Numbered from the stretch's first letter, positions 2,916-47,430 are shown. The stretch: DNA of 64,000 nucleotides from Bdellovibrionales bacterium (GCA_965219095.1 CBDCMT010000001.1:1824001-1888000), one strand, 5' to 3'. The notes: generated by a model not told the origin, from the letters alone. Translations and numbers: made by a program.

Positions 2916-4604
2916 TCAGTGAATTATAGTTTTCACATTACCCCGACCAACACAAACACTGTGCGGATTTTTGACCGCTTGAACCCAATTTCCCATTTCA
3001 GACTTTTTGGCTCCAAAATACTCCACACCTAGACCATGTTTATAGACTACAACCTTCTTGATGATCTCTGAGAGAAGTTCTTTTTGCTGTCTGGGGGTGA
3101 TTTTGGGTAGAGCCTTGTTTACAACCTTGAGTGCTGAAAAGATATTCTCTGCTGAAATGATGTTTTCTTTGAATTGAGACTTTTCCCTTTTGAGTTTGTC
3201 GATCTCTTCTTCTACCTGAGATTTCTTTTCACTAAGGTTGCCTAATTCTTCAATTAAAATGTCCTGAGCTTTCTGGTTCTTGCTTCTAGCAATGGCCTGA
3301 GTGAGGCTCTCTATATCTTTCCTTATGCCCTTTAAGGCTTCTAGGCGAGAGTACATAAGACTTTCCTGTTGTTTGAGACTCTCCTGGTTTTGGTGAGTGT
3401 TGTTTTGAGCAAGCTTTACTAAAAGGGCCTTATTTTTTGATAACTCTTTGAGTCGAAATAAAACACCTTCCTCTATAGTGTGGGCAGGAACATGCTCTAA
3501 GTCACATTTTTTTAAATGCCGATCTCCATAAGTCATCATCTTTCTTCTGTGGCCATAATAAAAGTACTTTTTTCCGTCTCTATTTGAGCTTCCTTTCCCT
3601 ACAAGCTTATCTCCACAAACTCCACAATACGTTAAACCTGAAAGAATATAACAATGATTGCTAGCTCTTAATTCTTTTTTATTTTTTTCTAAACGATCTT
3701 GAACCTCATTAAAAAGATTTTTATCAATAATAGCAGGCCACTGGCTGTCATAAACTTTGTATCTTTCAGGAACAGAAAGCTCTGACTGATCTTTATTTCT
3801 ATTTTTCTTGTTGAGTTCTCTTTTTCCTAAATAGGAAAAGTTGGTGAGAACAGTGTATAAAGACGAAGCAGTCCATCTTGTTCCGCCTCTTTTTTGTCCC
3901 TTTTTATTTACAAAAGACTTGGTGGTGTAACCATTTTGATTTAAAAAGTTTAAAACTTTAAATGTTGAGCCTAGCTCTAGAAGCTTTTTAAAAATCATTT
4001 GAACTATAGGTTTTTCTTCTTCATTAACTTTCAAATGGCATTTTTTTTCAGGGTGAAGATCATAGCCTAACATTCTTTGTCCACCATTAGAAAGACCTCT
4101 CTCTGCCCTTGCGTGAACTCCATGCTTTATACGCTCTACAGTGGTTTGCCTTTCAAATTGAGCAAAGCTAATGGCTTGGATAACCATAAGCTCTCCCATA
4201 GCAGTTGAGGTGTCAAAGTTTTCCTTTAGACTAAAAAACTTCACTTTATGTTCTTTGAGAAAATCCCAAAACTGGCAGAAATCTTTAACACTTCTACTAA
4301 GCCTTGAAAGCTCTGTTACAATAACAGCATTAACCTTTCCTAAAACAATGTCTCTACACATTTTTTGAAAAGCTGGACGGTTTAAGTTCTTCCCTGAATA
4401 ATCCTTGTCTGTGTAAGTTTCAATAACTTTTCCCCAATTTTTTTCAGTGTTGTTTTTCATATTGATAAAGTTTTTAATTCTTTGTGGGTGAGATACAAGA
4501 GAGCCTTCTTCTCTAATTTCATCACTTGGAGAAAGCCTCACATAAGAAGCTATGTTGTATTTATAATCCAATTGTTTTTTTGAAGTCTTCTTTTTTGAGG
4601 ACAT
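2916..4604 (-). CDS. Large serine recombinase LSR1 (resolvase + recombinase + Zn-ribbon + coiled coil); start uncertain (ATG 4604 or TTG 4571)
   Basis: Motifs YVRLS (catalytic Ser), D..YSGKNLNRPAFQ, LSRLSRS, AQFER, LSGLTYCGVCG, and a coiled-coil C-terminal region. Confidence 0.95.
   Translation of the reverse strand: MSSKKKTSKKQLDYKYNIASYVRLSPSDEIREEGSLVSHPQRIKNFINMKNNTEKNWGKVIETYTDKDYSGKNLNRPAFQKMCRDIVLGKVNAVIVTELSRLSRSVKDFCQFWDFLKEHKVKFFSLKENFDTSTAMGELMVIQAISFAQFERQTTVERIKHGVHARAERGLSNGGQRMLGYDLHPEKKCHLKVNEEEKPIVQMIFKKLLELGSTFKVLNFLNQNGYTTKSFVNKKGQKRGGTRWTASSLYTVLTNFSYLGKRELNKKNRNKDQSELSVPERYKVYDSQWPAIIDKNLFNEVQDRLEKNKKELRASNHCYILSGLTYCGVCGDKLVGKGSSNRDGKKYFYYGHRRKMMTYGDRHLKKCDLEHVPAHTIEEGVLFRLKELSKNKALLVKLAQNNTHQNQESLKQQESLMYSRLEALKGIRKDIESLTQAIARSKNQKAQDILIEELGNLSEKKSQVEEEIDKLKREKSQFKENIISAENIFSALKVVNKALPKITPRQQKELLSEIIKKVVVYKHGLGVEYFGAKKSEMGNWVQAVKNPHSVCVGRGNVKTIIH
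2941..2986. other. attL-like end of the LSR element (core CG at 2944-2945, arm motif 2967-2986)
   Basis: Identity with 15654-15696 begins exactly at CGACCAACAC; the sequence to the left is unrelated. Confidence 0.7.
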
Positions 4605-4776
4605 GGCCTTTGAGGGGTTTTCCCCTTTTGCTATTTTCCTCCATGAACCGCTGTAACATGTTTGCGATTTTTTCGATTCTTTCATCTTCTTCCTCCTGAC
4701 TTAATTCTACGGGAATCCATTTTATATTGTTTAGCATAGAGTCTCTTATGGAGCGAGATTTTTTTCTCTGCTTCAT
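4561..4776 (-). CDS. 71-aa protein overlapping the LSR1 5' end (recombination accessory factor candidate)
   Basis: AAAGGAG RBS; homologous to 13826-14041 (ML..I.WI.VE...EEE.ERI..IA.ML.RFMEEN). Confidence 0.7.
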   Translation of the reverse strand: MKQRKKSRSIRDSMLNNIKWIPVELSQEEEDERIEKIANMLQRFMEENSKRGKPLKGHVLKKEDFKKTIGL

Positions 4777-4854: not shown

Positions 4855-5136
4855 TTAGTTAAAAAGGGCCTTTATATCGGAAAGCCTAGGGCTTTTATTA
4901 GCACTCTCTAGCTCTTTGATGAGAGATTTGGCATAGGTCACAGGATTTTGAGTTTCTTTTTTAATTTTGTTGATATTTTTTTTAAAGTGCTGCTTTTCAT
5001 AGCTTTCAATAATAAAAGAAGTGAGGGCTTGTTTTTTGACTTTACTGGCAGTCTCTTTATTGAGAGCTTCTAGCATTTTTATAAGAGATTTGTTAGCTTG
5101 ATTTGAAATAGCAATTTTAGAAAATTTTTCTTTCAT
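4855..5136 (-). CDS. 93-aa basic protein of the LSR module (possible DNA-binding protein)
   Basis: AGGAG RBS; paralogue at 9868-10152 and a degraded copy at about 13470-13750. Confidence 0.7.
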   Translation of the reverse strand: MKEKFSKIAISNQANKSLIKMLEALNKETASKVKKQALTSFIIESYEKQHFKKNINKIKKETQNPVTYAKSLIKELESANKSPRLSDIKALFN

Positions 5137-5172
5137 AAATTTTTTCTCCTTTTATTTAAAAGGAAAAATGGC

Positions 5173-5637
5173 CTAGGCCACTTTTCCTTTGTATTTTTCT
5201 ACAAATTCTAGAATATCGTGCTTCCAGTAGTAGTTTACTTCATCGAAGGTTATGAGTTCTTCATCTGAAACTAAGCCGTCTATGTATTCATCTTTAGCTA
5301 ATCTCCAAGAGATTTCATCAAGCTGTTTAATGGCAACTGCTGTATCCACCGTGAGCCAGACGATTTTTGTATCTTCTGAGTAGCACTTATCAATCATAGT
5401 CTCAAATGCTTCCTCTGTATTGACTGGATCAAGAGCTTCTTTTAAAAGTTGTTCATAGACCCATTCGGTTCCGTACTCAACTCCAAAGCCTTCAAGCTCA
5501 CGCATGAGATCATCTGTTCCACAAGCTTCGCAAACTCCTGTTGGTGCTTTCATGTAACAGCCATAGCAAAAGGGCCTTGTTTCGAAAAATGCGATTTGTT
5601 CTAGTTTTTCTGTGATTTGTTTTTTTGTTAGCTCCAT
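5173..5637 (-). CDS. 154-aa acidic protein with N-terminal CxxC...CxxC zinc finger
   Basis: FCYGC...VCEAC; Asp/Glu-rich; AGGAGG RBS; paralogue at 6653-7117. Confidence 0.8.
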   Translation of the reverse strand: MELTKKQITEKLEQIAFFETRPFCYGCYMKAPTGVCEACGTDDLMRELEGFGVEYGTEWVYEQLLKEALDPVNTEEAFETMIDKCYSEDTKIVWLTVDTAVAIKQLDEISWRLAKDEYIDGLVSDEELITFDEVNYYWKHDILEFVEKYKGKVA

Positions 5638-5871
5638 ATTTGTCCTCCTTTGTTTATATGGTTTTTATTGTCAGGAGCTTGCAAAGGCCGAAGTGAGTGC
5701 TTTTCAAGAAAAAAATTGGGGGAAACCTTTAGGAGGAACCGATTTTTTTCTTTAAAAGCAGAACGAGCGCAGGCCTAAGCTCATGACAAAAATAAAAACC
5801 ATCATAAAAAACAAAGGAGATTAGGAGCTAACAATAAATCATAGAAAAACTATAAATTGCTTTTGAAACAG
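5578..5871 (+). promoter_or_regulatory. ~295-nt imperfect hairpin, candidate ssDNA (Frpo-like) promoter, copy 1
   Basis: Nested inverted arms: tagtttttctgtgattt/aaatcatagaaaaacta, ttgttagctcc/ggagctaacaa, ctcctttgttt/aaacaaaggag, atggtttttatt/aataaaaaccat, tgtcaggagctt/aagctcatgaca, aaaaaaattgg/ccgattttttt. Confidence 0.65.
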
Positions 5872-6013
5872 TTCTTTATTGTCTTAGATAAAATCTTGCT
5901 TTGAGATATCTATGACTTTAGTTGTGTCTTAACAAAGACCATTATCTAATTTTATGGAGTATTTATATAGAATGACTTTATATTTGCCCTTGTCAATCCG
6001 TTATAGTTTATAG

Positions 6014-6571
6014 ATGATCCTTTTAAAGAACAGAATAATTCAGAATCCTTTTTATTTATTACTTAGTTTTTTACTCATTCTCTCTCTTTTTTCTTGTGAT
6101 GAAAAATCAAATTCAACTGATTCAAATTCTTGTGAACCATGTAATTCTTGTGAACCATGTAATTCTTGTGAGTCATGTCCTCCTTGTCCTGTTCACAAGA
6201 AATTAAAAGATGGAACTTTTTTCGTCGGTTTAACCACACATGGTATGTTACTTGAAGTATCGAATTCCGGCGCAAACTATAAGATGGCGATACTTGATAA
6301 AGATCAACTGCTTTATATAACAGGATCAGGGAAAATTTCTTATGATGGAAATTATATTCAGTATAACGAAACTCCCTCTAGCTGTGGTACTTTATTCTCC
6401 GAACAAAACATAAAAGGTTATAGAGTTTACTATGTAGGGGAAGATATGTTATATCTAAAAGTATATGAGGATAGCTCTGTTGTGCCTGTATCTTTATATA
6501 AAGAAGATTCAACTTTTGACAGTTTAATAGAATCGATAATAGCTAACGGCTATACTTCTGCCTGTCCTTGA
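6014..6571 (+). CDS. Lipoprotein with Cys-rich linker
   Basis: Hydrophobic signal ending LFSC (lipobox), followed by NSCEPC repeats. Confidence 0.75.
   Translation: MILLKNRIIQNPFYLLLSFLLILSLFSCDEKSNSTDSNSCEPCNSCEPCNSCESCPPCPVHKKLKDGTFFVGLTTHGMLLEVSNSGANYKMAILDKDQLLYITGSGKISYDGNYIQYNETPSSCGTLFSEQNIKGYRVYYVGEDMLYLKVYEDSSVVPVSLYKEDSTFDSLIESIIANGYTSACP
6125..6178. repeat. 18-bp tandem repeat x3 (aattcttgtgaaccatgt)
   Basis: Two perfect copies and one variant copy. Confidence 0.95.
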
Positions 6572-6652
6572 GAAATTAATAAGAATAATATTTTTTAAAT
6601 TAACCCTTGAGAAAAATATCCAGTGTTTTATTTTTCAAAAAGAGAAAGTAGC

Positions 6653-7117
6653 CTAGGCTATTTTCTCTTTATATTTTTCTATAAACTCCATAATATCATG
6701 CGTCCAGTAATAGTTTTCTTCATCAAAAGTGATAAGTTCTTCATCAGAGACTAAGCTATCTATATAACTGTCTATTTCTAAATTCCAAGAAATCTCATCA
6801 AGTTGTTTAATGGCAGTAACAGTGTCTACTGTAATCCAGCCGATTTTAACTTCTTCTGGGTAACATCCATCAACCATAGTTTCAAAGATTTCTTCTTTAT
6901 CGACTGGAACAAGGGCTTCTTTTAAAAGCTGTTCATAGACCCATTCGGTTCCATATTCAACGCCAAAGCCTTCAAGTTCACGCATAAGATCATCTGATCC
7001 ACATTTGTGACAAACTCCTGTTGGTGCTTTTATGTAACAGCCATAGCAAAATGGTGTTGTTTCAATAAAAGCGATTTTTTCTAGTTTTTCTATGATTTGT
7101 TGTTTTGTTAGCTCCGT
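6653..7117 (-). pseudogene. Second copy of the 154-aa acidic zinc-finger gene, start codon ATG>ACG
   Basis: Colinear with 5173-5637; cgt at 7115-7117 replaces cat; the frame is otherwise open. Confidence 0.75.
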
Positions 7118-7354
7118 ATTTGTCCTCCTTTGTTTATATGGTTTTTATTGTCAGGAGCTTAAAAGAGGCCGAAGCGAGTGCTTTTCAAGACAAAAAATTG
7201 GGGGAAACCTTTTAGGGGGAACCGATTTTTTTCTTTAAAAGCAGAACGAGCGTAGGCCTAAGCTCATGACAAAAATAAAAACCATCATAAAAAACAAAGG
7301 AGGTTAGGAGCTAACAATAAATCGTAGGAAAGCTTAGAAATTGCTTTTGAAATA
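7058..7354 (+). promoter_or_regulatory. ~295-nt imperfect hairpin, candidate ssDNA promoter, copy 2
   Basis: Homologous to 5578-5871 with pairing retained, including new G.T pairs on the + strand. Confidence 0.65.
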
Positions 7355-7383
7355 GCTTTTTATTGTCTAGGTGAAAAAAGTAC

Positions 7384-8903
7384 GCCTCCTCAAAAGAATC
7401 TGTGGCTTCCCGGAGGTTCTGGCAGTTTTCCAAGGTTATGATATAAGGCGATTTTTATAGCTTTAGAGGTTCTAAAGCCGTAAGATTTTCTCATAGTGAG
7501 TTTTACTTTGTTGTTTAAACCCTCTACAATCCCTGAGGAGAAGGCTTTTTTAGCCTTGAAGTAATTAAGAATAAGTAGCTTATGTCTTCGTATGGTTTTT
7601 GCTTCTCTTTTCATAGGTTCAATTTTTGAAAGCATGACTCGTCTCGTCCAACTGTCTATAAATTTACCAGCCCAAGTTGGTGAAACATAGGTCCATAACT
7701 GTCGGAAGTCTTCTTTTAAAAAATAACAGCGGATACTTTTTAAATTGTACTGTATTAAATGCCTTAATTTTACTTTCTCATAAGATTTTAAATTTTCTGC
7801 ATTTTTTAACAAGGGCCATCTAGCTTTTGTTAAAAGGGGTTCATACCCGTCTTCTTTCATTTTTTTGTGTTCTGAAGCTCTCACTTCGTCTAAAGCCTTA
7901 TTGAGTCTTGCTACGATATGAAACCGATCTAATATATTCAAAGCTTGACTTGCCCTTTCCTTTATTACTTTTAAATAGGGCTTCCACATATCAGAACACA
8001 CAAACTGTATATCTTTTGACTTCTCTCCTAGTAAATCAAAGAATTTTCTAAAACTCTTTTCTGTTCTTTTTTCTCCTATCCATAGCAAACGAACACTTTC
8101 TTTGCTTATTTCATAGACTAAGGTGAGATACTGATGGTTCTTTTTCCATTGTATTTCATCTACACCTATAGCTTGTATTCCCTTTAAAACCCTTTGTTTT
8201 AAACCATATTCTACGACCCATTCTACCGAAGCATAGACCTGATTCCAACTGACATGAAACTTACAAGAAACCTCTTTCCAAGACAGGTGACGACACCAGT
8301 CAGCTAAGTACTTCATGTAAAAAATTGTTAGGTTTTTCTTACCATCGGCCCAAGGTAAATACTCAACTTTTACCCCACAGCAAGGACAATTAACTCTTCT
8401 TACAAAATAAACAAAAAACACCCTGTAACTTAAAATAGGAAGGGATTCAAAGTCCCGTGATGATTTACTGCTGTCATACACTGAACAGGGCTTCTTACAA
8501 ACACTACAAAAAGCTTGGCCATTTTTACGAGCCTTAATAGGAACATTAATTGACTTTCTATCTTTTGAAAAATAAATGTCTCCGTATACAAAAGACTTCC
8601 ATCTTAAACAATCATTTAGTATAGTCTTCAAAAGCATCTCTTCCCTCCTTTTTTTTTTTTTTTGAATAACATTTTAAGGCATCTGGGAAGTAGGTGCTTC
8701 TTTTTTAAAATTTTAATGTAACACAGCAAATAAAAGCAAATAAAAGAATGTTTTTGAGTTCAATCACCGGAGGTGATAGAGGCCAGTAAGGGCCTCAAAG
8801 AACTCAAAAATACAAGATAGAATGTCTTACTCTTACTTTGATTAATATGAGCTCTTTTGGGGGATTTCTACTACTTTTCACCCACAGATTCCCGGGAGGA
8901 GCC
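7384..8903 (-). mobile_element. ISL3-family IS, complete
   Basis: Ends GGCTCCTCCCGGGAATCTGTGGG and GCCTCCTCAAAAGAATCTGTGG; 8-bp target duplication AAAAGTAC (7376-7383 and 8904-8911). Confidence 0.95.
7390..8637 (-). CDS. ISL3-family transposase
   Basis: Zn-finger CxxC pairs, IGVDE, CSDMW, LDRFH, VEGLNNKVK, YGFR. Confidence 0.95.
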   Translation of the reverse strand: MLLKTILNDCLRWKSFVYGDIYFSKDRKSINVPIKARKNGQAFCSVCKKPCSVYDSSKSSRDFESLPILSYRVFFVYFVRRVNCPCCGVKVEYLPWADGKKNLTIFYMKYLADWCRHLSWKEVSCKFHVSWNQVYASVEWVVEYGLKQRVLKGIQAIGVDEIQWKKNHQYLTLVYEISKESVRLLWIGEKRTEKSFRKFFDLLGEKSKDIQFVCSDMWKPYLKVIKERASQALNILDRFHIVARLNKALDEVRASEHKKMKEDGYEPLLTKARWPLLKNAENLKSYEKVKLRHLIQYNLKSIRCYFLKEDFRQLWTYVSPTWAGKFIDSWTRRVMLSKIEPMKREAKTIRRHKLLILNYFKAKKAFSSGIVEGLNNKVKLTMRKSYGFRTSKAIKIALYHNLGKLPEPPGSHRFF

Positions 8904-8944
8904 AAAAGTACTAACAGGGGTTTTTAGTTTAAAGAATAAGAACT

Positions 8945-10152: not shown

Positions 10153-10219
10153 ATTTTTTCTTTCATTCTGTTTGAAAAAGGGTAAGTAGCTATAAAGCCA
10201 TTTTCCCTTTATATTTTTC

Positions 10220-10615
10220 GGCTCCTCCCAGGAATCTGTGGGTAAAAAGTAGCTAGAAATTCCCCAAACGGGTCATATCAAGCAAAGCAAGAAAGTAAAG
10301 ATTAAGATATCCTATCTTATATTTTTGAGCTCTTTGAGATCTTTTGCTGGTCTCTATTGCTTCAGCGATTGAACTCAAAAATCTTCATTTTATTTGCTGT
10401 ATTACATTAAAATCTTAAAAAAGAAGTCCCTACTTCCCAGATGCTTTTGAAGACTATACTAAATGATTGTTTAAAATGGTAGTCTTGTGTATGGAGACAT
10501 TTATTTTTATGCTTTTAAAGTAATTCATCTTAATTTTTACTTTCTTGCTTTGCTTGATATGACCCGTTTGGGGAATTTCTAGCTACTTTTTACCCACAGA
10601 TTCCCGGGAGGAGCC
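10220..10615. mobile_element. 396-bp MITE built from two ISL3-type left ends
   Basis: ~89-bp terminal inverted repeats with 2 mismatches, starting GGCTCCTCCC. The interior holds a degraded transposase start (atgcttttgaagactatactaaatg at 10441). Confidence 0.85.
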
Positions 10616-10779
10616 AAATTTTTAAGCTTAATTTTTCGTTTTTGAGTATAAGGTTCTCTATGTATTAGAAATATTTTGTCTAAATACTTTTTTTTGAAAA
10701 TCATTTTGCTCCTTATGTTGGATTATGTTATTATAGCTAAGGTATATTTTATTCAAGCAAGCTTGAAAAGGCGTAAGAT

Positions 10780-11205
10780 ATGGTTTTATTTTCTAAGATA
10801 ATAAATAGACTTTTAATAGCTTTAGAAGTACTTTCTTATGTTTTTATAATTTTGATACCAGGTAGTATATTTATATTTAGCGATTATGTTGGTATTGGTA
10901 TGTTTTATTATTTAGTAGGTTATTGCCTTTTCTCTTTTATTCTCTTTAGAGTTGTCAGATTTGTTTTAAAGCCTTTTTTAGAAATTCATGAAGGTGATAA
11001 AAATACGGCTCCTCAAAAGAACCTCCGGGAACCCACAGATTCTTTTGAGGAGGCATTTTTTCTTTTGCCTCTATTTTTTCTTACTTCAATTATCATCACT
11101 TGGTTTAAAGGAACAGGTAATTTTATAGAAAAAGTAAAACGTGTTTTTATTGGGACAATTTTGCTTATTGCTTTTCCTGAAATCACAGAGGCTGTTTTAT
11201 CGTAA
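10780..11205 (+). pseudogene. Chimeric membrane-protein ORF joined through a 48-bp ISL3 micro-element
   Basis: Two hydrophobic halves separated by residues encoded by 11007-11054. Confidence 0.55.
11007..11054. mobile_element. 48-bp ISL3 right-end micro-element
   Basis: ggctcctcaaaagaa-cctccgggaacccacaga-ttcttttgaggaggc; recurs at 41981-42028. Confidence 0.85.
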
Positions 11206-11396
11206 CTGTTCGGAAAAATTCTAGTTAGGTTTTACCTGAATTTTAAAATAAATCGTTAAAATTATTAGTGTTTTTTAGTTTTAACCCCCTGCCTTCTTCG
11301 GACAACTACCCGTGACCCTGCTCTCCTTACATAACTGTCGTGCGAATGGGGTCACGGCTAGCTTGAAAGCAGAGGGTATGGTATAAGGAGAGGGTA

Positions 11397-11471
11397 TATA
11401 GTGACAGCGCTTAGATTTTCCATCTATTCCCCCCTAGAAGAAAAGACTGAAAACTAACCGGAAGCACTATA
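11397..11471. mobile_element. ~75-bp IS630-type miniature element
   Basis: Ends tatagtgacagcgcttagattttc and ctgaaaactaaccggaagcactata match the IS630-A IR family. Confidence 0.65.
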
Positions 11472-13825: not shown

Positions 13826-14041
13826 ATGGGTAAGAACCGAAAACCTTACTCCAAGAAATACCCTATGCTAGACCATATAGAATGGATAAAAGTTGAACAA
13901 ACAGAGGAAGAGGAAAATGAAAGAATTAAAGAGATCGCAAGAATGCTCCACAGGTTTATGGAGGAAAATTGCAAAAGGAGAAAATCCCAAAAAAACAATG
14001 TATTCCAAAAAGAAGGCTTTAAAAAAAGCTTTGGACTGTAA
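13826..14041 (+). CDS. 71-aa protein overlapping the LSR2 5' end
   Basis: AAGGAGG RBS; homologous to 4561-4776. Confidence 0.7.
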   Translation: MGKNRKPYSKKYPMLDHIEWIKVEQTEEEENERIKEIARMLHRFMEENCKRRKSQKNNVFQKEGFKKSFGL

Positions 14042-15692
14042 GTATAGATTAGCGGTTTATGTAAGACTCTCTCCAAGTGATGAAATAAGAGAGGAAGGTT
14101 CTCTTATCTCTCATCCTCAAAGAATTAAAAATTTTGTTAAAATGAAAAACTCTACAGAAAAAAACTGGGGAAAAGTCATAGAAACTTATACAGATAAAGA
14201 TTTTTCAGGAAAGAATCTAAACCGCCCTGCTTTTAAGAAAATGTGTCGAGATATTATTTCAGGAAAAGTCAATGCTGTTATTGTCACAGAGCTTTCAAGG
14301 TTAAGTAGAAATGTAAAAGATTTTTGTGAGTTTTGGGAATTTTTAAAAGAAAATAAAGTTAAGTTTTTTAGTCTTAAAGAAAATTTTGACACCTCTACTG
14401 CTATGGGAGAGCTTATGGTCATTCAAGCTATTAGCTTTGCTCAATTTGAAAGACAAACTACTGTAGAGAGGATAAAACATGGAGTTCAAGCAAGAGCTGA
14501 ACGAGGTCTTTCTAATGGTGGGCAAAGGATGTTAGGCTATGATCCTCATTCTGAGAAGAAATGCCACCTTATGGTGAATGAAAAAGAAAAGCCTCTTGTT
14601 GAGTTTATTTTTAAAAAGTTTTTAGAGTTAGGCTCTCTAAGTAAAACTCTTAATTATTTAAATGAAAATGGCTATACTACAAAATCATTTCTAAACAAAA
14701 AGAAAGAGAAAAAAGGTGGCAACCGTTGGACTATGGGAACTCTTTATACTTGTCTTACGAACCTTGCTTATTTAGGGAAAAGGGAGTTAAATAAGAAAAA
14801 TCGCAACAAAGATCAATCAGAGCTGAGTCCTTCTGAAAGATATAAAGTCTATGAGAGTCAATGGCCTGCTATTGTATCCAAAGAGCTTTTTAATGATGCC
14901 CAAGCTCTTTTAGAAGTGAATAAAAAGCACACAAGGTTTAAGAAGCATTGTTATGTTCTTTCAGGCTTAGCTTATTGTGGGCTTTGTGGAGAGAAGATTG
15001 TAGGAGTTGTGGCTAACGGAAGAGATAGAAAGTATTACTACTATGGCCATAAGAGAAAGATGCTCGCTCATGGAACAAGGCATTTAGAAAGGTGTGAGCT
15101 TGAAAATGTGCCTGCTCATGCTTTAGAAGAAGCGGTTCTTTTTAGAATTAAAAACCTTATAAAAAACAAAAAACTTTTGATAGAGCTTGTCAAAAACAAC
15201 ACTTCGCAAAATGAAAAAAGCCTCAAACAGCATAAAAGCCTTATGCAGTCCCGTATAGAGGAGTTAAAGGCTATAGAAAAGGACATAGAAGGACTTACAA
15301 TGGCCATAGCAAGGGCTAAAGATGACAAAACCCAAGATGTTCTGTTAGCAGAAATGGACAAGTTGACTGAGAAGTCCCACGCTTTAAAAGAAGAGATAGA
15401 AAAGCTCAAAAAGGAAAAATCTAAAATGAAAGAAGGGCTTGTTTCAGCAGAAGGAGTGTTTTCAGCCTTAAAGCTTGTAAACAAAGAGTTACCTAAGCTA
15501 GATCGACAACAGCAAAGACAACTCCTTATGAAAGTTATAAAACGAATTGTGGTCTATAAGGATAAACTAGGGGTAGAGTATCTAGGGGAACAAAACCCCA
15601 ACTTAGACTTTGGGGTTCAAGCGGTCAAAAATTTGTCTGATTTTCGACTTGGTCGACCAACACAAACACTGTGCGGATTTTTGACCGCTTGA
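13893..15692 (+). CDS. Large serine recombinase LSR2 (true start probably about 13999-14032)
   Basis: YVRLS, LSRLSRN, AQFER, LSGLAYCGLCG; clearly diverged paralogue of LSR1. Confidence 0.95.
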   Translation: MNKQRKRKMKELKRSQECSTGLWRKIAKGENPKKTMYSKKKALKKALDCKYRLAVYVRLSPSDEIREEGSLISHPQRIKNFVKMKNSTEKNWGKVIETYTDKDFSGKNLNRPAFKKMCRDIISGKVNAVIVTELSRLSRNVKDFCEFWEFLKENKVKFFSLKENFDTSTAMGELMVIQAISFAQFERQTTVERIKHGVQARAERGLSNGGQRMLGYDPHSEKKCHLMVNEKEKPLVEFIFKKFLELGSLSKTLNYLNENGYTTKSFLNKKKEKKGGNRWTMGTLYTCLTNLAYLGKRELNKKNRNKDQSELSPSERYKVYESQWPAIVSKELFNDAQALLEVNKKHTRFKKHCYVLSGLAYCGLCGEKIVGVVANGRDRKYYYYGHKRKMLAHGTRHLERCELENVPAHALEEAVLFRIKNLIKNKKLLIELVKNNTSQNEKSLKQHKSLMQSRIEELKAIEKDIEGLTMAIARAKDDKTQDVLLAEMDKLTEKSHALKEEIEKLKKEKSKMKEGLVSAEGVFSALKLVNKELPKLDRQQQRQLLMKVIKRIVVYKDKLGVEYLGEQNPNLDFGVQAVKNLSDFRLGRPTQTLCGFLTA

Positions 15693-15696
15693 ACCC
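15613..15696. other. Symmetric attP-like junction between two convergent LSR genes
   Basis: Perfect 20-bp IR GGGTTCAAGCGGTCAAAAAT (15613-15632 and 15677-15696) centred exactly on the palindrome TTGGTCGACCAA (15649-15660). Confidence 0.75.
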
Positions 15697-17282
15697 AATT
15701 TCCTATTTCAGACTTTTTGGCTCCAAAATACTCCACGCCTAAGCCATGTTTATAGACTACAACCTTCTTGATGATCTCTGAGAGAAGCTCTTTTTGTTGT
15801 CTGGGAGTGATTTTGGGCAGAGTCTTATTTACAACCTTGAGTGCTGAAAAGATATTCTCTGCTGAAATGATGTTGTCTTTGAATTGAGACTTTTCCTTTT
15901 TGAGCTTTTTGATCTCTTCTTCTACCTGAGATTTCTTTTCACTAAGGTTACCTAACTCTTCAATTAAAATGTCCTGAGCTTTCTGATTCTTACTTCTAGC
16001 AATGGCCTGAGTGAGACTTTCTATATCTTTCCTTATGCCCTTTAAGGCTTCTAGGCGAGAGTACATAAGGCTTTCCTGCTGTTTGAGACTCTCCTGATTT
16101 TGGTGAGTGTTGTTTTGAGCAAGCTTTACTAAAAGGGCCTTATTTTTTGATAACTCTTTGAGTCTAAACAAAACACCTTCCTCTATAGTGTGGGCAGGAA
16201 CATGCTCTAAGTCACATTTTTTTAAATGCCGATCTCCATAAGTCATCATCTTTCTTCTGTGGCCATAATAAAAGTATTTTTTTCCGTCTCTATTTGAGCT
16301 TCCTTTCCCTACAAGTTTATCGCCACAAACTCCACAATAAGTTAAACCTGAAAGAATATAACAATGATTGCTGGCTCTTAATTCTTTTTTATTTTTTTCT
16401 AAACGATCTTGAACCTCATTAAAAAGATTTTTATCAATAATAGCAGGCCATTGGCTATCATAAACTTTGTATCTTTCAGAAATAGAAAGCTCTGACTGAT
16501 CTTTATTTCTATTTCTCTTATTAAGCTCTCTTTTTCCTAAATAGGAAAGGTTGGTGAGAACAGTGTATAAAGACGAGATAGTCCATCTTGTTCCGCCTCT
16601 TTTTTTCTCCCTTTTTGTTCACAAAAGACTTCGTAGTGTAGCCGTTTTGATTTAAAAAGTTTAAAACTTTAAATATAGAGCCTAGCTCTAAAAGCTTTTT
16701 AAAAATCATTTGAACTATAGGTTTTTCTTCTTCATTAACTTTCAAATGGCATTTTTTTTCAGGGTGAAGATCATAGCCTAACATTCTTTGTCCACCATTA
16801 GAAAGACCTCTCTCTGCTCTTGCGTGAACTCCATGCTTTATACGCTCTACAGTGGTTTGTCTTTCAAATTGAGCAAAACTAATGGCTTGGATAACCATAA
16901 GTTCTCCCATAGCAGTTGAGGTATCAAAGTTTTCTTTTAGACTAAAAAACTTCACTTTATGTTCTTTGAGAAAATCCCAAAACTGGCAAAAATCTTTAAC
17001 ACTTCTACTAAGCCTTGAAAGCTCTGTTACGATAACAGCATTAACCTTTCCTAAAACAATGTCTCTACACATTTTTTGAAAAGCTGGACGGTTTAAGTTC
17101 TTCCCTGAATAATCCTTGTCTGTGTAAGTTTCAATAACCTTTCCCCAATTCTTCTCTGTATTGTTTTTCATATTGATAAAATTTTTGATTCTTTGTGGGT
17201 GAGATACAAGAGAGCCTTCTTCTCTAATTTCATCGCTTGGAGAAAGCTTCACATAAGAAGCTATCTTGTGTTTATAATCTAA
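15617..17282 (-). pseudogene. Second copy of LSR1, frameshifted and with its 5' end replaced
   Basis: Near-identical to 2944-4590. Extra T in the run at about 16600-16606; TTG>TTA at the candidate start; upstream replaced by hsdS. Confidence 0.9.
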
Positions 17283-20739: not shown

Positions 20740-22037
20740 CTAGCCAAGATTGTCTTCAGTGTCGCTTGTGGCCACCCAATACTCCTTTTCTGAGGGGTAG
20801 AGCCTAATCACTGCCTTTTCCTCTCCTTGTACCATAAAAGCTTCTGAAAACTCCCTCTTTTTGCTTTGAAGGCTTGCTACAAGAGAGAGTTCCCTCTCAT
20901 TGAGCTTTAATATCTCATAGGCAGGCTTTAGGTCTCCTTTTTGTTGAAGAATAAATTTTGTGGCGGTGTTGTTTAGAATCGCAGGGCCTATGGGGTGGTT
21001 AGCGATTTCCTCTATCCCTTGAGTGATGAATGTTATGCCAGATCCAGTTTTTCTAAGAGTTCGTACACAATACTCCATAAAATTTGAACTAGCCCTTCCC
21101 TTAAGTAGTTCCCAACACTCATCCATCAAAATGCGTTTCTTTTTTAAAGTTGTTTTAGGATCATTTGCTTCTATCCTTTGTAAAATAAAATTAGTGATAA
21201 TTAAAATCATAACACTTTGAAGGTCAGAGTAACTTGATAATCCTTTAAGATCAAAAACTACAAAATCATTTTCAGTGTTAAAACTTCCTTGAGTATCTAG
21301 AAGTTTTTCGTAAGGAGTTGAACTTGTCCAAGGATAGAGCATTTTAGCAAAGTTTTGAAGTTTTTTATCATTTGAATTTTTAAGTAGATTTTTAAAGTCC
21401 GAGAGTCTTGGAGTTTTATTGAACTTATAAAGTTCATCAATTTTTTCCTCTAATAAAGCACGTTCTAATTTGGGAAGTTTCTCTCCCTCAACATCCGTTA
21501 ATAAGTTCTCCATAAGTGCCAATAAGAATTTAATCTTTCCTGAATTTGGAGTCTTTGCGTTTCCTTGTAATGCAAACGGATTAAACGAGAGTGAATTGGG
21601 ATTTTCTTCTGAGTTATTAGACGATGGGGCAACATCAACATATTGACCTCTTGTTAGTTTGCAAATTTTTCTGTAGCTTCCGCCAATATCAATAATAAAA
21701 TTCATGGAGTTTTCCTTAATCTTTTCTTTGGATTGAAAATTCTCTGATTTTCCCTATGAAAACGGAGATTTTTTGAGGCGACCTAGAATGAAAAATCCTA
21801 GTGAGTAAAATTTATTTCGAATCTAGGTGAAGTAAAATAAGATTATTTAAAAAACTCTTCCCCGATCCTCTGGAGCCTGTAACTAGAGAATTGTAGTTAG
21901 AAAGCTTAGAATGAAATGGATCATATTTAACAAGAGCTTTTTCTCTGTTTCTAAAGAGACAAATTAGTTTTTGATCAACTCCTGTGTAGCTTTGATAGAC
22001 TGGTAGAAAATCAGCAAGGTTACTTGCCTTTGTTTTT
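20740..22037 (-). pseudogene. VirB4/TraC-type conjugative ATPase, C-terminal half, interrupted
   Basis: Walker A VTGSRGSGKS at about 21850-21885; IIDIGGSY; Walker B ILMDECW; RTLRKTG...ITQ. An insertion of about 100 bp splits the two parts. Confidence 0.85.
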
Positions 22038-41810: not shown

Positions 41811-41980
41811 TATTTTTGTACACTTTAATTTCTTGATTCTCTCTTAAATTCAATTTAAATTTAAATTTGATGAGTTTTTTATAATTAGTACTACTTTGGC
41901 AGGTAAATTAAGTTGTGCTATAATAGGCTCAAAGATACCTAAGGAGGGGTTGAGTATGAGATATTCAGAGTTAAAAAAAT

Positions 41981-42028
41981 GCCTCCTCAAAAGAACCTCC
42001 GGGAACCCACAGATTCTTTTGAGGAGGC
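41981..42028. mobile_element. 48-bp ISL3 right-end micro-element
   Basis: One mismatch to 11007-11054; 15-bp perfect terminal IR. Confidence 0.85.
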
Positions 42029-42081
42029 AAGAATTCCTTGGTTTCTTCTTTTTTTGAATCATAATCAATAGAAAGAGCATA

Positions 42082-44507: not shown

Positions 44508-45419
44508 ATGGCTAAAAATTCCATGAAAAAAAACTCCCCTACTCTTGATTTTGCAGTGGATCCGTTGAGCGAAACAATAGCTTATGAAACTTTGCTTAGT
44601 CTAAGAGATGTGACAGAAAAAACACTTGAAAAAGAGTTTCCCTCTGATAGTTTTCTGGAACAAGAAACTCTTTTACAAATCCTAGAATTAAAAAAAGAAT
44701 CAAGGCGAGAAGAAATCAAAAAGAATTATTCTGAGGTTAAAAAATTTGTAAGTGCAAAATGGAATGATTTTTCTGTTTGTATAAAAGATAACTTTCATTT
44801 TCCAAATGATTTAAAAAATCATGATTCTTTAAAGCTTTTCTATTATAAAGGCAATATAAGTCTTCTTGAAAGTCGTTGTATATCAATTATTGGTACAAGA
44901 GAGGCAACGTCAGATGGACTCAAAAGAGCAGAAAAGCTAACTAAGATTCTTGTCAATAAAAATTTTACAGTTGTTTCTGGACTTGCTAAAGGGATTGATA
45001 CAAAAGCTCTTCAAACTGCTATTAACCTTAACGGAAGGGTAATTGCTGTGATTGGGACACCTATTGACAAGTTTTATCCAAAGGAAAACAAGGAACTGCA
45101 AGAACTTATTGCCAAGAATCATCTTTTAATCAGCAAGGTTCCTCTTTTTAGATACAAAAAAGAAAATTTTTCTTCACATAAATTTCATTTTCCTAGAAGA
45201 AATATCATTATGTCAGCTATTTCAGAAGCCTCTATCATTGTAGAAGCTTCTGAAACGAGTGGAACACACTCTCAAGCAAGAGCAGCTCTCAAACAAGGGA
45301 AAAAGTTATTTATACTTGATTCTTGTTTCAAAAAATATAAATGGCCATTTATTCTCGAGCAAAAAGGGGCCATTAGAGTTAGACAAGAAGAAGATATATT
45401 GAGGCACATAAAGGAATAA
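44508..45419 (+). CDS. DprA/Smf family protein, ShosA-like (copy 2)
   Basis: 5 aa differences from 1108-2019. Confidence 0.9.
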   Translation: MAKNSMKKNSPTLDFAVDPLSETIAYETLLSLRDVTEKTLEKEFPSDSFLEQETLLQILELKKESRREEIKKNYSEVKKFVSAKWNDFSVCIKDNFHFPNDLKNHDSLKLFYYKGNISLLESRCISIIGTREATSDGLKRAEKLTKILVNKNFTVVSGLAKGIDTKALQTAINLNGRVIAVIGTPIDKFYPKENKELQELIAKNHLLISKVPLFRYKKENFSSHKFHFPRRNIIMSAISEASIIVEASETSGTHSQARAALKQGKKLFILDSCFKKYKWPFILEQKGAIRVRQEEDILRHIKE

Positions 45420-45424
45420 ACCTA

Positions 45425-46084
45425 GTGTCAAACTACAAGTGGCAAAAAATAAGAACTGGTTCAAACACAATGGATGATCTTATAAATATAAGAACTTTCA
45501 GACATATTGATCCTGACGATAATTGCTTTCATTTAATGGAGTGGATAAAGGGAGGAAGTTACAAGGATTCAGAGGCTAATAGTCGCATACTTAATTTTAA
45601 AAACCCACCGAAAGCACAAGGCTCAAATCTTCGTTATTATAAGGATAAGGCTATTAAACAATTTGCTAAGGACTTATACTGTCCTATAGAAAGTATTATT
45701 AAAAAGTATCAAGAAGAATCTATTTGTGTATCTTTTATACCATCTTCAGTATCAAGTAGTGATGGAGAATATGATGATAGATTTGAAAAAATTTGCGCTC
45801 TGCTTTGCAAAAAATTTTCAAAAATCCATTGCGAACAAGCTATTCGAGTAACAGAATCTCGAAACAAGTCAGCTCAAGGTGGAAAGCCTAGAGATGATGA
45901 ATATGTAGAAAAAATAAAACAAAGCTTTACATGGGATGGCTTCAGCCATACCCCAAGTGCTATTATCATTTTTGATGATGTTATAACAACAGGTTTACAG
46001 TTCAAAGCATATAAAAAGCTTATTAGAGAAAACTTAAACAATGATCCAATAATAATAGGTTTATTTTGGGCCAAAGCCGTTTAA
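45425..46084 (+). CDS. PRTase-fold protein, ShosT-like (copy 2, 8 aa shorter)
   Basis: DDVITTGLQF; GAA>TAA at 46082-46084. Confidence 0.75.
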   Translation: MSNYKWQKIRTGSNTMDDLINIRTFRHIDPDDNCFHLMEWIKGGSYKDSEANSRILNFKNPPKAQGSNLRYYKDKAIKQFAKDLYCPIESIIKKYQEESICVSFIPSSVSSSDGEYDDRFEKICALLCKKFSKIHCEQAIRVTESRNKSAQGGKPRDDEYVEKIKQSFTWDGFSHTPSAIIIFDDVITTGLQFKAYKKLIRENLNNDPIIIGLFWAKAV

Positions 46085-46212: not shown

Positions 46213-46533
46213 CTATAAAAGAATTAAAAGTTTAAATCTTAAATTGACAAAAGAATCCATTAAAAAATGATATGAATAAAACTTTACTAAATTTTCTAAA
46301 TCATGGTCTGTTTTGGTTTCTAAGTTCTTAAAAGACCTTGAAGTCATTTCTCTTTCTGAAAGAAAGATCAAATGAATTAAAAGATCAAAAAGAGGTACTT
46401 CTTCTTTTTTGGAATTTGTGCAGTCCTCTTTCAGAGCTAGTATGAGCTCACACACCTTTGGACAAAGACCCTCCTCCAAAGATTCTAAGCCCTTCTTTAA
46501 GGCTTTATTGATTTCAAAATTGTAAATCATCAT
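46213..46533 (-). CDS. Hypothetical protein
   Basis: 106-aa ORF with AAAGGAG RBS; its 3' end also survives at about 2813-2856. Confidence 0.5.
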   Translation of the reverse strand: MMIYNFEINKALKKGLESLEEGLCPKVCELILALKEDCTNSKKEEVPLFDLLIHLIFLSEREMTSRSFKNLETKTDHDLENLVKFYSYHFLMDSFVNLRFKLLILL

Positions 46534-46729
46534 AATTTATTTCTCCTTTCTGGTTAAAATTTGGACTTAAAACTATAGAGTAGGGCTTTATTTTGAAGCC
46601 TAATGGCTATCAAAAGCTTTAAGGCTGTGATATTAGGTAGAATTAGGCATGCTGTACCTCCCCGAGTTAGGTATGGTTTTTGCTTAGAGGCTGGAAGGTG
46701 TTTTAGGCACTTTCCAGACTCGCTTTTTT

Positions 46730-47430
46730 CTAATCAAACTCGGGTTTCAAAGAAAGTCCACTTTTTTTATAATTTGACTCGGAGAGTTTGATTAGAAAAA
46801 GCTTCTTAAAGCTCTTCTTTTGCAAATTTTTACTTTCTTCTAGCCTTCTTTGAGCTATAGAAAAATAAGCCTTATCCTGCTCTATACCTGTAAAAGAAAA
46901 GTTTTTTTCTAAACAAGCTACCCCCGTTGTACCACTTCCCATAAACGGATCAAGAACCCTCCCACCAGGAGGTGTGATCATCTCACAAAGGTATCTCATA
47001 AGTTTTAAGGGCTTCACTGTAGAATGAGTGTTAAAAGAAAACCTCTCTTTCCTAGAAGCTCTTGAAGCATAGTAAAAAGGAGCTTCAAAAGCTTTTATAG
47101 AGCTTGAAACTCCACCTTGCTTTTCTAAAACCTGACTGGGACAATTTTCTAAAGACTTTGTTATGAGAAAATTATTAGGGTATTTTCTTCTACTTCCAAA
47201 CCTTGAAGCCTCAACATTCAAGCCTCCTGTCCTATACTTCAAAACATTTTGAGCTACATTTTGCTCTGAAATAGGTTTTTGAATTAAAATCCAATGCTCG
47301 CTTGCTGGCTTTAAAGCAGTCCTCCAATCAATCCACTCCATAGCTTTGGGGTCTGTAGAAACTGTCACTTTTCCGTACTTTCTTTTCTTATCTTTTCCTA
47401 AACTCCATGCTGGAGACTGGTGAAAGCCTA
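46730..47430 (-). pseudogene. DNA amino-methyltransferase (beta class) C-terminal part, cut by IS630-B
   Basis: TALKPASEHWIL, HSTVKPLKLMRYL, VLDPFMGSGTTGVA. Confidence 0.85.

Follow-up and report, generated by a model that had tools for sequence, protein, structure and literature searches.

We analysed a 64,000-nt stretch of DNA from a Bdellovibrionales bacterium (GCA_965219095.1; hereafter, the window), in which two imperfect hairpins of ~295 nt overlap the starts of two copies of a gene for a small acidic protein, here called X. Both hairpins are genuine structures that fold best on the template strand of gene X; across homologous loci the structure is conserved without its sequence, and we regard the hairpin as a selected ssDNA structure. 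The sequence data are best read as describing a site, new in sequence type, that serves as ssDNA promoter and primer. Specifically, we propose, with a probability of roughly 0.6, that the hairpins are promoters forming only when the + strand, which a MOBC-type ICE is predicted to transfer, is single-stranded, and that the resulting RNA expresses X and can also serve as a primer. This reading is supported by a strand preference that exceeds composition, at least 17 unrelated groups of upstream sequence, covariation and template-biased triloops, as well as by the co-orientation of X with the relaxase, the polarity of an oriT-like repeat (23 of 23 cores) and an apical layout like that of Frpo. 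The ICE family extends across the phylum, its relaxase occurring in 217 and X in 56 of 401 genomes, and brings with it an acidic protein yet to be characterised, several new hairpin classes and a candidate oriT family whose polarity can be read; the position of X lets the strand and direction of MOBC transfer be tested directly.

Two hairpins fold best on the template strand of gene X

The preliminary description had claimed two hairpins that pair the RBS and first ~20 codons of the gene with distal DNA, and had taken the template strand to be the folding one. All of this was borne out (Table 1). With DNA parameters, the + strand of hairpin 1 folds at -75.2 kcal/mol (z -13.1) and the - strand at -64.2 kcal/mol (z -10.2), the values for hairpin 2 being -69.2 (z -10.8) and -55.9 kcal/mol (z -8.4), and none of 200 shuffles was as stable as the native fold in any of the four cases. 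The + strand leads by 11-13 kcal/mol across both hairpins; because shuffled sequence alone gives it ~3 kcal/mol, 8-11 kcal/mol of this preference is not compositional. With RNA parameters, hairpin 1 reaches -123.3 kcal/mol on the + strand and -97.3 kcal/mol (z -11.6) in the mRNA sense, so that neither the - strand nor the mRNA folds as well as the template; an equal or better fold of either had been named in advance as contrary to the claim. Hairpin 1 consists of an apical A-tract/T-tract stem, a purine-rich internal loop and an outer stem that takes in the RBS and ~19 codons of X, and its arms are ~67% identical as an inverted repeat.

The template strand had originally been argued for from G.T positions on the + strand. 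The three segments quoted for this are present and paired in the folds, although the excess of G.T is marginal against a composition control (p=0.08, see the next section). Aligning arm against arm with no wobble bonus, we counted G.T to A.C mismatches on the + strand at 3:1 (copy 1) and 6:0 (copy 2), and A.G to C.T at 6:2 and 8:1, respectively. This plain alignment was preferred to folding without G.T pairs combined with a count of small internal loops, which yields few sites (34:21 or 41:16) from an energy that is still strand-biased. Searching the hairpins against Rfam gave nothing at the gathering score; the best hit, MIR2646 (30-32 bits versus a gathering score of 245), was rejected as a generic long-hairpin match.

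Table 1. Features of the X loci and of their surroundings in the window (positions counted from the first letter of the window).
Feature	Position	Strand	Remarks
Large serine recombinase (ICE integrase)	2916..4685	-	Sister copies end at tRNA-Met/tRNA-Pro
93-aa protein gene	4855..5136	-	In relatives often adjoins the relaxase
Palindrome at X stop codon (centre)	5159..5190		Counterpart 6639-6670
Gene X, copy 1	5173..5637	-	154 aa, pI 4.3, CxxC..CxxC motif, confident AlphaFold model
Hairpin 1	5578..5871	+	~294-nt imperfect rod, best fold on + (template of gene X)
RBS of X, AAAGGAGG	5644..5651	-	Paired inside the hairpin
Candidate -35, TTTAAA (distal arm)	5751..5756	+	Putative; opposite TTGAAA of the proximal arm; T.C mismatch at 5753
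Candidate -10, TAAGCT (distal arm)	5776..5781	+	Putative; faces 4-nt template-arm bulge 5681-5684
Distal arm of hairpin 1	5810..5871	+	Copy of the X mRNA RBS and first codons without the ATG
Gene X, copy 2	6653..7117	-	Starts with ACG; 78% identity with copy 1
Hairpin 2	7058..7354	+	93% identical to hairpin 1; candidate boxes 7234-7239, 7259-7264
ISL3 transposase	7390..8637	-	Inserted just past hairpin 2
oriT-like GC-rich inverted repeat	11284..11400	-	85% identical to the post-relaxase repeat of a sister ICE
VirB4/TraG P-loop C-terminal fragment	20740..21705	-	Same orientation as X

Conservation and covariation at homologous loci

Gene X was found at 113 public loci, mainly titled Bdellovibrionales, Bacteriovoracaceae or Oligoflexia. 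Removal of seven candidates with short upstream DNA, 16 duplicates and seven without an anchor left 87 of 117 regions for folding. The template strand folds lower in 84 of these 87, partly owing to composition: with 12 shuffles per region, the excess reaches at least 2 SD for the template in 8 of 25 regions, for the coding strand in one, and for neither in 16. Related sequences are included in the regional counts, so kin are not independent; the upstream sequences themselves, taken from 88 regions, fall into at least 17 unrelated groups.

Pairing of the distal arm with the RBS and start, i.e., a detectable outer stem, is present in 20 of 58 dereplicated regions, and no significant outer stem was found in the closest relatives (L070, L073, L076, L080). 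Outer stems carry G.T and A.C on the template at 54:15, with 16 regions favouring G.T, one favouring A.C and three ties (p 3e-6 against 1:1); shuffled arms give 2.3:1, against which the observed ratio has p=0.076. The cognate distal arm outperforms the best non-cognate arm of its own group in 12 of 19 cases, and the ATG is kept opposite the start in three of 20 distal arms (two alignments stop short of the start).

Covariation among homologues, proposed in the preliminary description as a check, was indeed observed. When the class of the window hairpins is aligned with the L002 class, two-sided changes appear at 9 of 29 pairs (8 sequences from two clades). One helix of the largest group is paired in all 23 representatives despite 10 different sequences, its mismatches on the template being 17 G.T and no A.C, chiefly at one position; this helix was counted per sequence, and consensus folding of the 41-member class was defeated by the alignment register. 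The loops point to the same strand. C-GNA-G triloops are stable loops specific to DNA. Such triloops number 52 on the template versus 13 on the coding strand in the 88 regions (180 versus 207 in 1049 control regions), GCGAAGC occurs 16 times on the template and never on the coding strand (control, 11 versus 15), and UUCG loops are rare on both strands.

Gene X and its protein

The source genome carries four copies of X. Protein X has a pI of 4.2-4.3 (median 4.3 among 75 relatives), and the AlphaFold model has a pLDDT of 95. No match was obtained in Pfam or PADLOC, and neither Foldseek (PDB/BFVD) nor VIA-align identified a clear fold match (best Z 3.8); none of these assigns X to MTase or to the known anti-defence proteins ArdA, ArdB/KlcA, Ocr and Acr. 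The Atlas places it in hypothetical clusters alone, and three unnamed PHROGs match 23-46 of 90 relatives. From its charge and context, we would guess that X is a DNA mimic or an anti-defence factor; under the proposed mechanism, this acidic protein would act in establishment or anti-defence. Copy 2 is possibly inactivated by its start codon, which replaces ATG, and the palindrome over the stop codon of copy 1 is a possible terminator. Between both copies, on the + strand at 6014-6571, lies a gene for a 185-aa lipoprotein-like product with Cys-rich CEPCNS repeats and no family match.

Sister ICEs and the conjugative context

The window is occupied by clustered, decayed integrative elements; among its contents are numerous IS, several large serine recombinases and a fragment of VirB4. 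Two X copies located elsewhere in the genome sit in near-complete ICEs, which encode a pilin (VirB2), VirB4, VirB8, VirB10, T4CP and a Replic_Relax (MOBC-like) relaxase and have the order relaxase, GC-rich inverted repeat, cargo, hairpin-X, 93-aa gene and recombinase ending at a tRNA. The relaxases match Pfam PF13814 (Replic_Relax) weakly (E 3e-6 for the C1 copy, 0.013 and 0.0023), and the 341 kb copy does not match this model. The relaxase family has the make-up of a MOBC/Replic_Relax system: it combines wHTH with a PD-(D/E)xK-type part, lies beside T4CP and keeps the PD..ExE..K motif with conserved D149, E166, E168 and K174. An ssDNA stage of the element had been postulated although no relaxase is visible in the window; that absence stands, and the genome search for relaxase and oriT that had been suggested located both a Replic_Relax relaxase and an oriT-like repeat in the sister ICEs, which are conjugative in content, with T4SS and T4CP.

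The hairpin of one sister copy is 98% identical, and that of the other is unrelated in sequence yet folds, best on the template (z -6.2). A sliding fold scan of both near-complete ICEs ranks the GC-rich repeat and the X hairpin as the strongest folds, the latter being among just two or three strong hairpins per element. The C1 ICE, which is without X, has no strong hairpin and no match to the oriT core. A Shedu (SduA) defence gene (L117:7524-8699) is carried as cargo between the oriT-like repeat and X of a sister ICE. In a third ICE, the slot taken elsewhere by X holds three small genes with acidic-looking products and one gene resembling a methyltransferase, without a strong hairpin (L118:14973-17730), and window positions 46213-47368 were grouped with this set.

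Polarity of the oriT-like repeat and the predicted transferred strand

Of the 14 elements that possess X as well as the relaxase, 13 carry the two in the same orientation (the exception is G400), and in elements with T4CP alone X is co-oriented in two and opposite in two (L049, L054); leading genes of the F plasmid are likewise co-oriented with tra. Transfer genes within the 10-20 kb retrieved were detected at 10 of ~67 longer public X loci and in two of 15 extra regions. At other loci, noted upstream of X in L003, L025, L067, L068, L090, L093 and L107, the neighbour of X is a 160-200 aa protein with HTH and recombinase domains (14 loci) or a double-Xre protein (~10 loci), with no relaxase nearby; such loci possibly represent another element type.

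A long repeat built around a TGACC..GGTCA core is present in 23 (21 distinct) of 36 stretches that follow the relaxase, and the relaxase-template strand folds better in all 23 cores. Twelve of the 13 stretches without a regex match have the relaxase before T4CP, and at nine loci of this kind the profile places the repeat ahead of the relaxase, its polarity unchanged. Phylum-wide, conserved GC-rich inverted repeats with a CloDF13-nic-like core lie beside Replic_Relax relaxases (L141-L170, L114:5860-6030, L117:7110-7260 and the window copy); they follow the relaxase where the order is T4CP-relaxase and precede it where the order is relaxase-T4CP. The window copy has the opposite polarity and was assigned to an adjoining head-to-head relic element.

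Several of the repeats carry GGGTGGTC on the relaxase template, resembling the CloDF13 nic, which is quoted as GGGTG/GTCGGG in PMC5935869, and near-nic sequence is found on both strands. The MOBC oriT of CloDF13 is likewise a long inverted repeat with a CTGACC..GGTC core; an exact nic sequence occurs there once, within the 3' arm and on the strand that folds better, the template of the mob genes, and GGGTGGTC of the repeats described here has the same location. Unlike the ICE class of the window, where the repeat follows the relaxase, CloDF13 has it before, and the profile built here does not match CloDF13 at E<=1. By this analogy, the GC-rich repeat is a candidate oriT family, although, according to PMC2262945, cleavage of related MOBC oriTs may take place on either strand.

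In all 12 elements with both repeat and X, polarity makes the X template the predicted nicked strand (three of the matches being weak, E 0.03-0.16), and, reasoning from the CloDF13 nic, we infer that it is the strand transferred. Ten of the 12 have X 0.8-5.1 kb from the predicted nick, on its 3'-OH side; in the other two X is 12 and 26 kb away, beyond tra. With 5'-first transfer, and provided that the predicted strand is the one nicked, X would enter last, outside the leading region where Frpo resides. A 3'-first order is conceivable, because MOBC relaxases are reported to detach from the 5' end (PMC8152469), and because PMC11541004 describes no leading-region enrichment for MOBC elements, which were left out of the largest leading-region survey for want of signal. 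The MOB_C table of that source (positions -225 to +61) contains no anti-defence gene block near oriT on either side and is thus uninformative on polarity. It would be a bold conjecture, to which we give little credence, that MOBC elements transfer the 3'-OH end first and that hairpin-X, 1-5 kb from the end in two layouts, is a true leading-region ssDNA promoter of a new acidic anti-defence family, its outer stem also acting as a lock on the RBS in the double-stranded element.

Candidate promoter boxes and proposed mechanism

The promoter sequence given in the preliminary description, TTAAAA-N18-TAAGCT, is present with its -10 in the position listed in Table 1, but it agrees with the consensus at no more than 7 of 12 bases and does not appear in the promoter-scan output; the -35 is more likely the hybrid TTTAAA/TTGAAA formed by the two arms. 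Four hairpins of a related class have TTGAAA-N17-GAnGnT in the equivalent place. The start site would fall near 5669, ~32 nt before the ATG of X. Since neither arm alone has a good -35 together with good spacing, specificity for ssDNA would be accounted for. A linear sigma70 scan of 58 representatives detected no excess on either strand (mean z -0.47 versus -0.49); it also misses F Frpo1/2, and therefore this null result neither supports nor refutes a promoter.

The proposed mechanism is as follows. Once the + strand is single-stranded after transfer, the hairpin would fold and the arm bearing the T-tract, -35 and -10 would meet the template arm, allowing host RNA polymerase to start ~30 nt before the ATG of X. 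The RNA would express X transiently in the recipient and could prime second-strand synthesis, as for F Frpo, and the polymerase would find its downstream duplex in the outer stem that spans the RBS and first codons. As a by-product, the RBS would be partly hidden in read-through mRNA from the integrated double-stranded element.

Comparison with known ssDNA promoters and origins

F Frpo1/Frpo2 (ssp1) and ssi1-3 of ColIb-P9/pESBL, the class 1 ssDNA promoters, are likewise long imperfect template-strand hairpins before a gene co-oriented with tra (PMC9849209, PMC12672017, PMC11541004). Such a long, stable template-strand stem-loop before a gene is what we found upstream of X, and the apical A/T-tract followed by a TTG-like hexamer (TT[G/T]) is common to the X hairpins and to F and ColIb Frpo (PMC11541004 supplementary file 7). 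In F Frpo1/2, too, the linear promoter consensus is weak, and the template of F Frpo beats the coding strand by 1-6.5 kcal/mol over 300-nt windows. Compared by eye, the two types show no sequence resemblance. Unlike F/ColIb Frpo, the X hairpin is AT-rich (34% GC) and belongs to a Bdellovibrionota ICE with a MOBC-like relaxase; its stem spans the RBS and ~19 codons, whereas those of F Frpo1/2 stop ~120 nt upstream, and it is predicted to be trailing rather than leading. The original Frpo-like interpretation is partly supported: the strand, the conjugative family and the oriT-like polarity speak for it, but the G.T argument is weaker than first stated, the -35 is more likely another one, and the leading-region placement usual for Frpo does not hold under 5'-first transfer.

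Class 2/3 ssDNA promoters (ssp2 before ardB/klcA/ardA and the M.EcoGIX promoter) share structure without sequence homology, a stem near the RBS and a small gene; they differ in being GC-rich, in residing on enterobacterial MOBF/MOBP plasmids and in having mapped start sites (PMC12672017, PMC13478746). The sso's of rolling-circle plasmids and sso1 of ICEBs1 are orientation-specific long hairpins as well, and most plasmid sso's lie upstream of the nick, matching the X hairpin, whereas ICEBs1 sso1 is downstream of oriT (PMC4595007); in contrast to these, X hairpins are tied to a gene start and its RBS. Within the portion of the literature covered, ssDNA promoters established by experiment are confined to enterobacterial MOBF/MOBP plasmids. 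A search with subscription journals and bioRxiv supplements outside its coverage returned nothing on ssDNA promoters or ICEs in Bdellovibrionota; related work includes 10.64898/2026.01.09.698686, PMC5714925 and PMC12857230.

Alternative explanations

The foremost competitor, which we nonetheless regard as unlikely, is a single-strand origin acting only as primer, with the hairpin recruiting RNA polymerase or a primosome at the trailing end and X being expressed from another promoter. The location 0.8-5.1 kb upstream of the predicted nick (10 of 12) is the usual one for an sso in rolling-circle plasmids (PMC4595007), the GAGCG/GCGAAGC motifs are biased to the template, and the promoter boxes are weak; a pure sso, however, has no need of a structure linked to one gene's start across unrelated sequence classes, nor of a distal arm that tracks the RBS and first codons of its own X (cognate better in 12 of 19). 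Somewhat less probable still is a translational lock in mRNA, whereby read-through from co-oriented tra or cargo genes folds the distal arm onto the RBS and silences X with no ssDNA promoter involved. The mRNA-sense fold is strong in its own right (-97.3 kcal/mol, z -11.6), and in copy 1 accessibility of the RBS-ATG region drops from 0.69 to 0.44 once the distal arm is included; the same data allow that locking may be a second effect under the preferred reading. A weak TTCAAA-N18-TATGAT on the - strand also faces the gene (6 such sites versus 8.2 expected by chance). The accessibility shift is modest, though, the template G.T wobbles would become A.C in mRNA (16 regions versus 1), and the template bears GNA triloops of the DNA type as its loops, UUCG being rare on either strand.

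We give slightly less weight again to transfer of the coding strand through a nick on the other repeat arm, which would make X leading and the hairpin, acting on the coding strand, a replication roadblock or an outward primer site. This arrangement agrees with the rule (PMC11541004) that the relaxase enters last in T4CP-relaxase-oriT-X elements, and the repeat bears near-nic sequence on both strands; yet the template is the better-folding strand both for the oriT-like repeat (23 of 23) and for the hairpin of X, and in relaxase-T4CP elements the repeat precedes the relaxase without a change of polarity, as in CloDF13. By far the least credible is that the 5' end of the gene underwent an inverted duplication of which the hairpin is a neutral relic: the ~67% identity of the arms and the missing outer stem in the four closest relatives would suit it, but it is largely refuted already because of covariation, with compensatory changes, and it sits poorly with several unrelated hairpin classes before one gene and with so few strong hairpins per near-complete sister ICE. 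The ssDNA promoter thus remains our preferred reading, although it is weakened by the null sigma70 scan, the G.T control (p=0.076), the outer stem in only 20 of 58 regions and the lack of a strand excess in 16 of 25. Further weakening comes from the few loci with transfer genes, the opposite orientation in G400, L049 and L054, the unmatched CloDF13, the either-strand cutting mentioned in PMC2262945, and the late entry of X under 5'-first transfer, unlike Frpo. Priming upstream of oriT has, moreover, been argued to be risky for ICEs (PMC4595007).

Other features of the window

DNA contigs confirm the locus and include an additional form that joins 5884 to 8904, which may be the layout of a sister copy. 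Sequence depth of the ISL3 element in sequencing runs is 30-100x that of the remaining sequence, and short repeats matching its ends (10217-10618, 11000-11061, 41980-42029, 8880-8905) are MITE-like or IS scars. The 93-aa protein may be RHH-like, offered as a lead only, its nearest named Atlas clusters being MetJ/RHH_6 at 0.85-0.86. Recombinase relics are numerous in the source genome; at 13893-17252, a + strand recombinase stands tail to tail with a frameshifted - strand copy. A DprA/Smf and PRTase pair is present in two copies (1108-2708 and 44508-46084), the first of which matches PADLOC ShosA/ShosT, and positions 2-565 encode the N-terminus of a Mrr-type restriction endonuclease that matches PADLOC PDC-S73 and short Argonaute-associated models.
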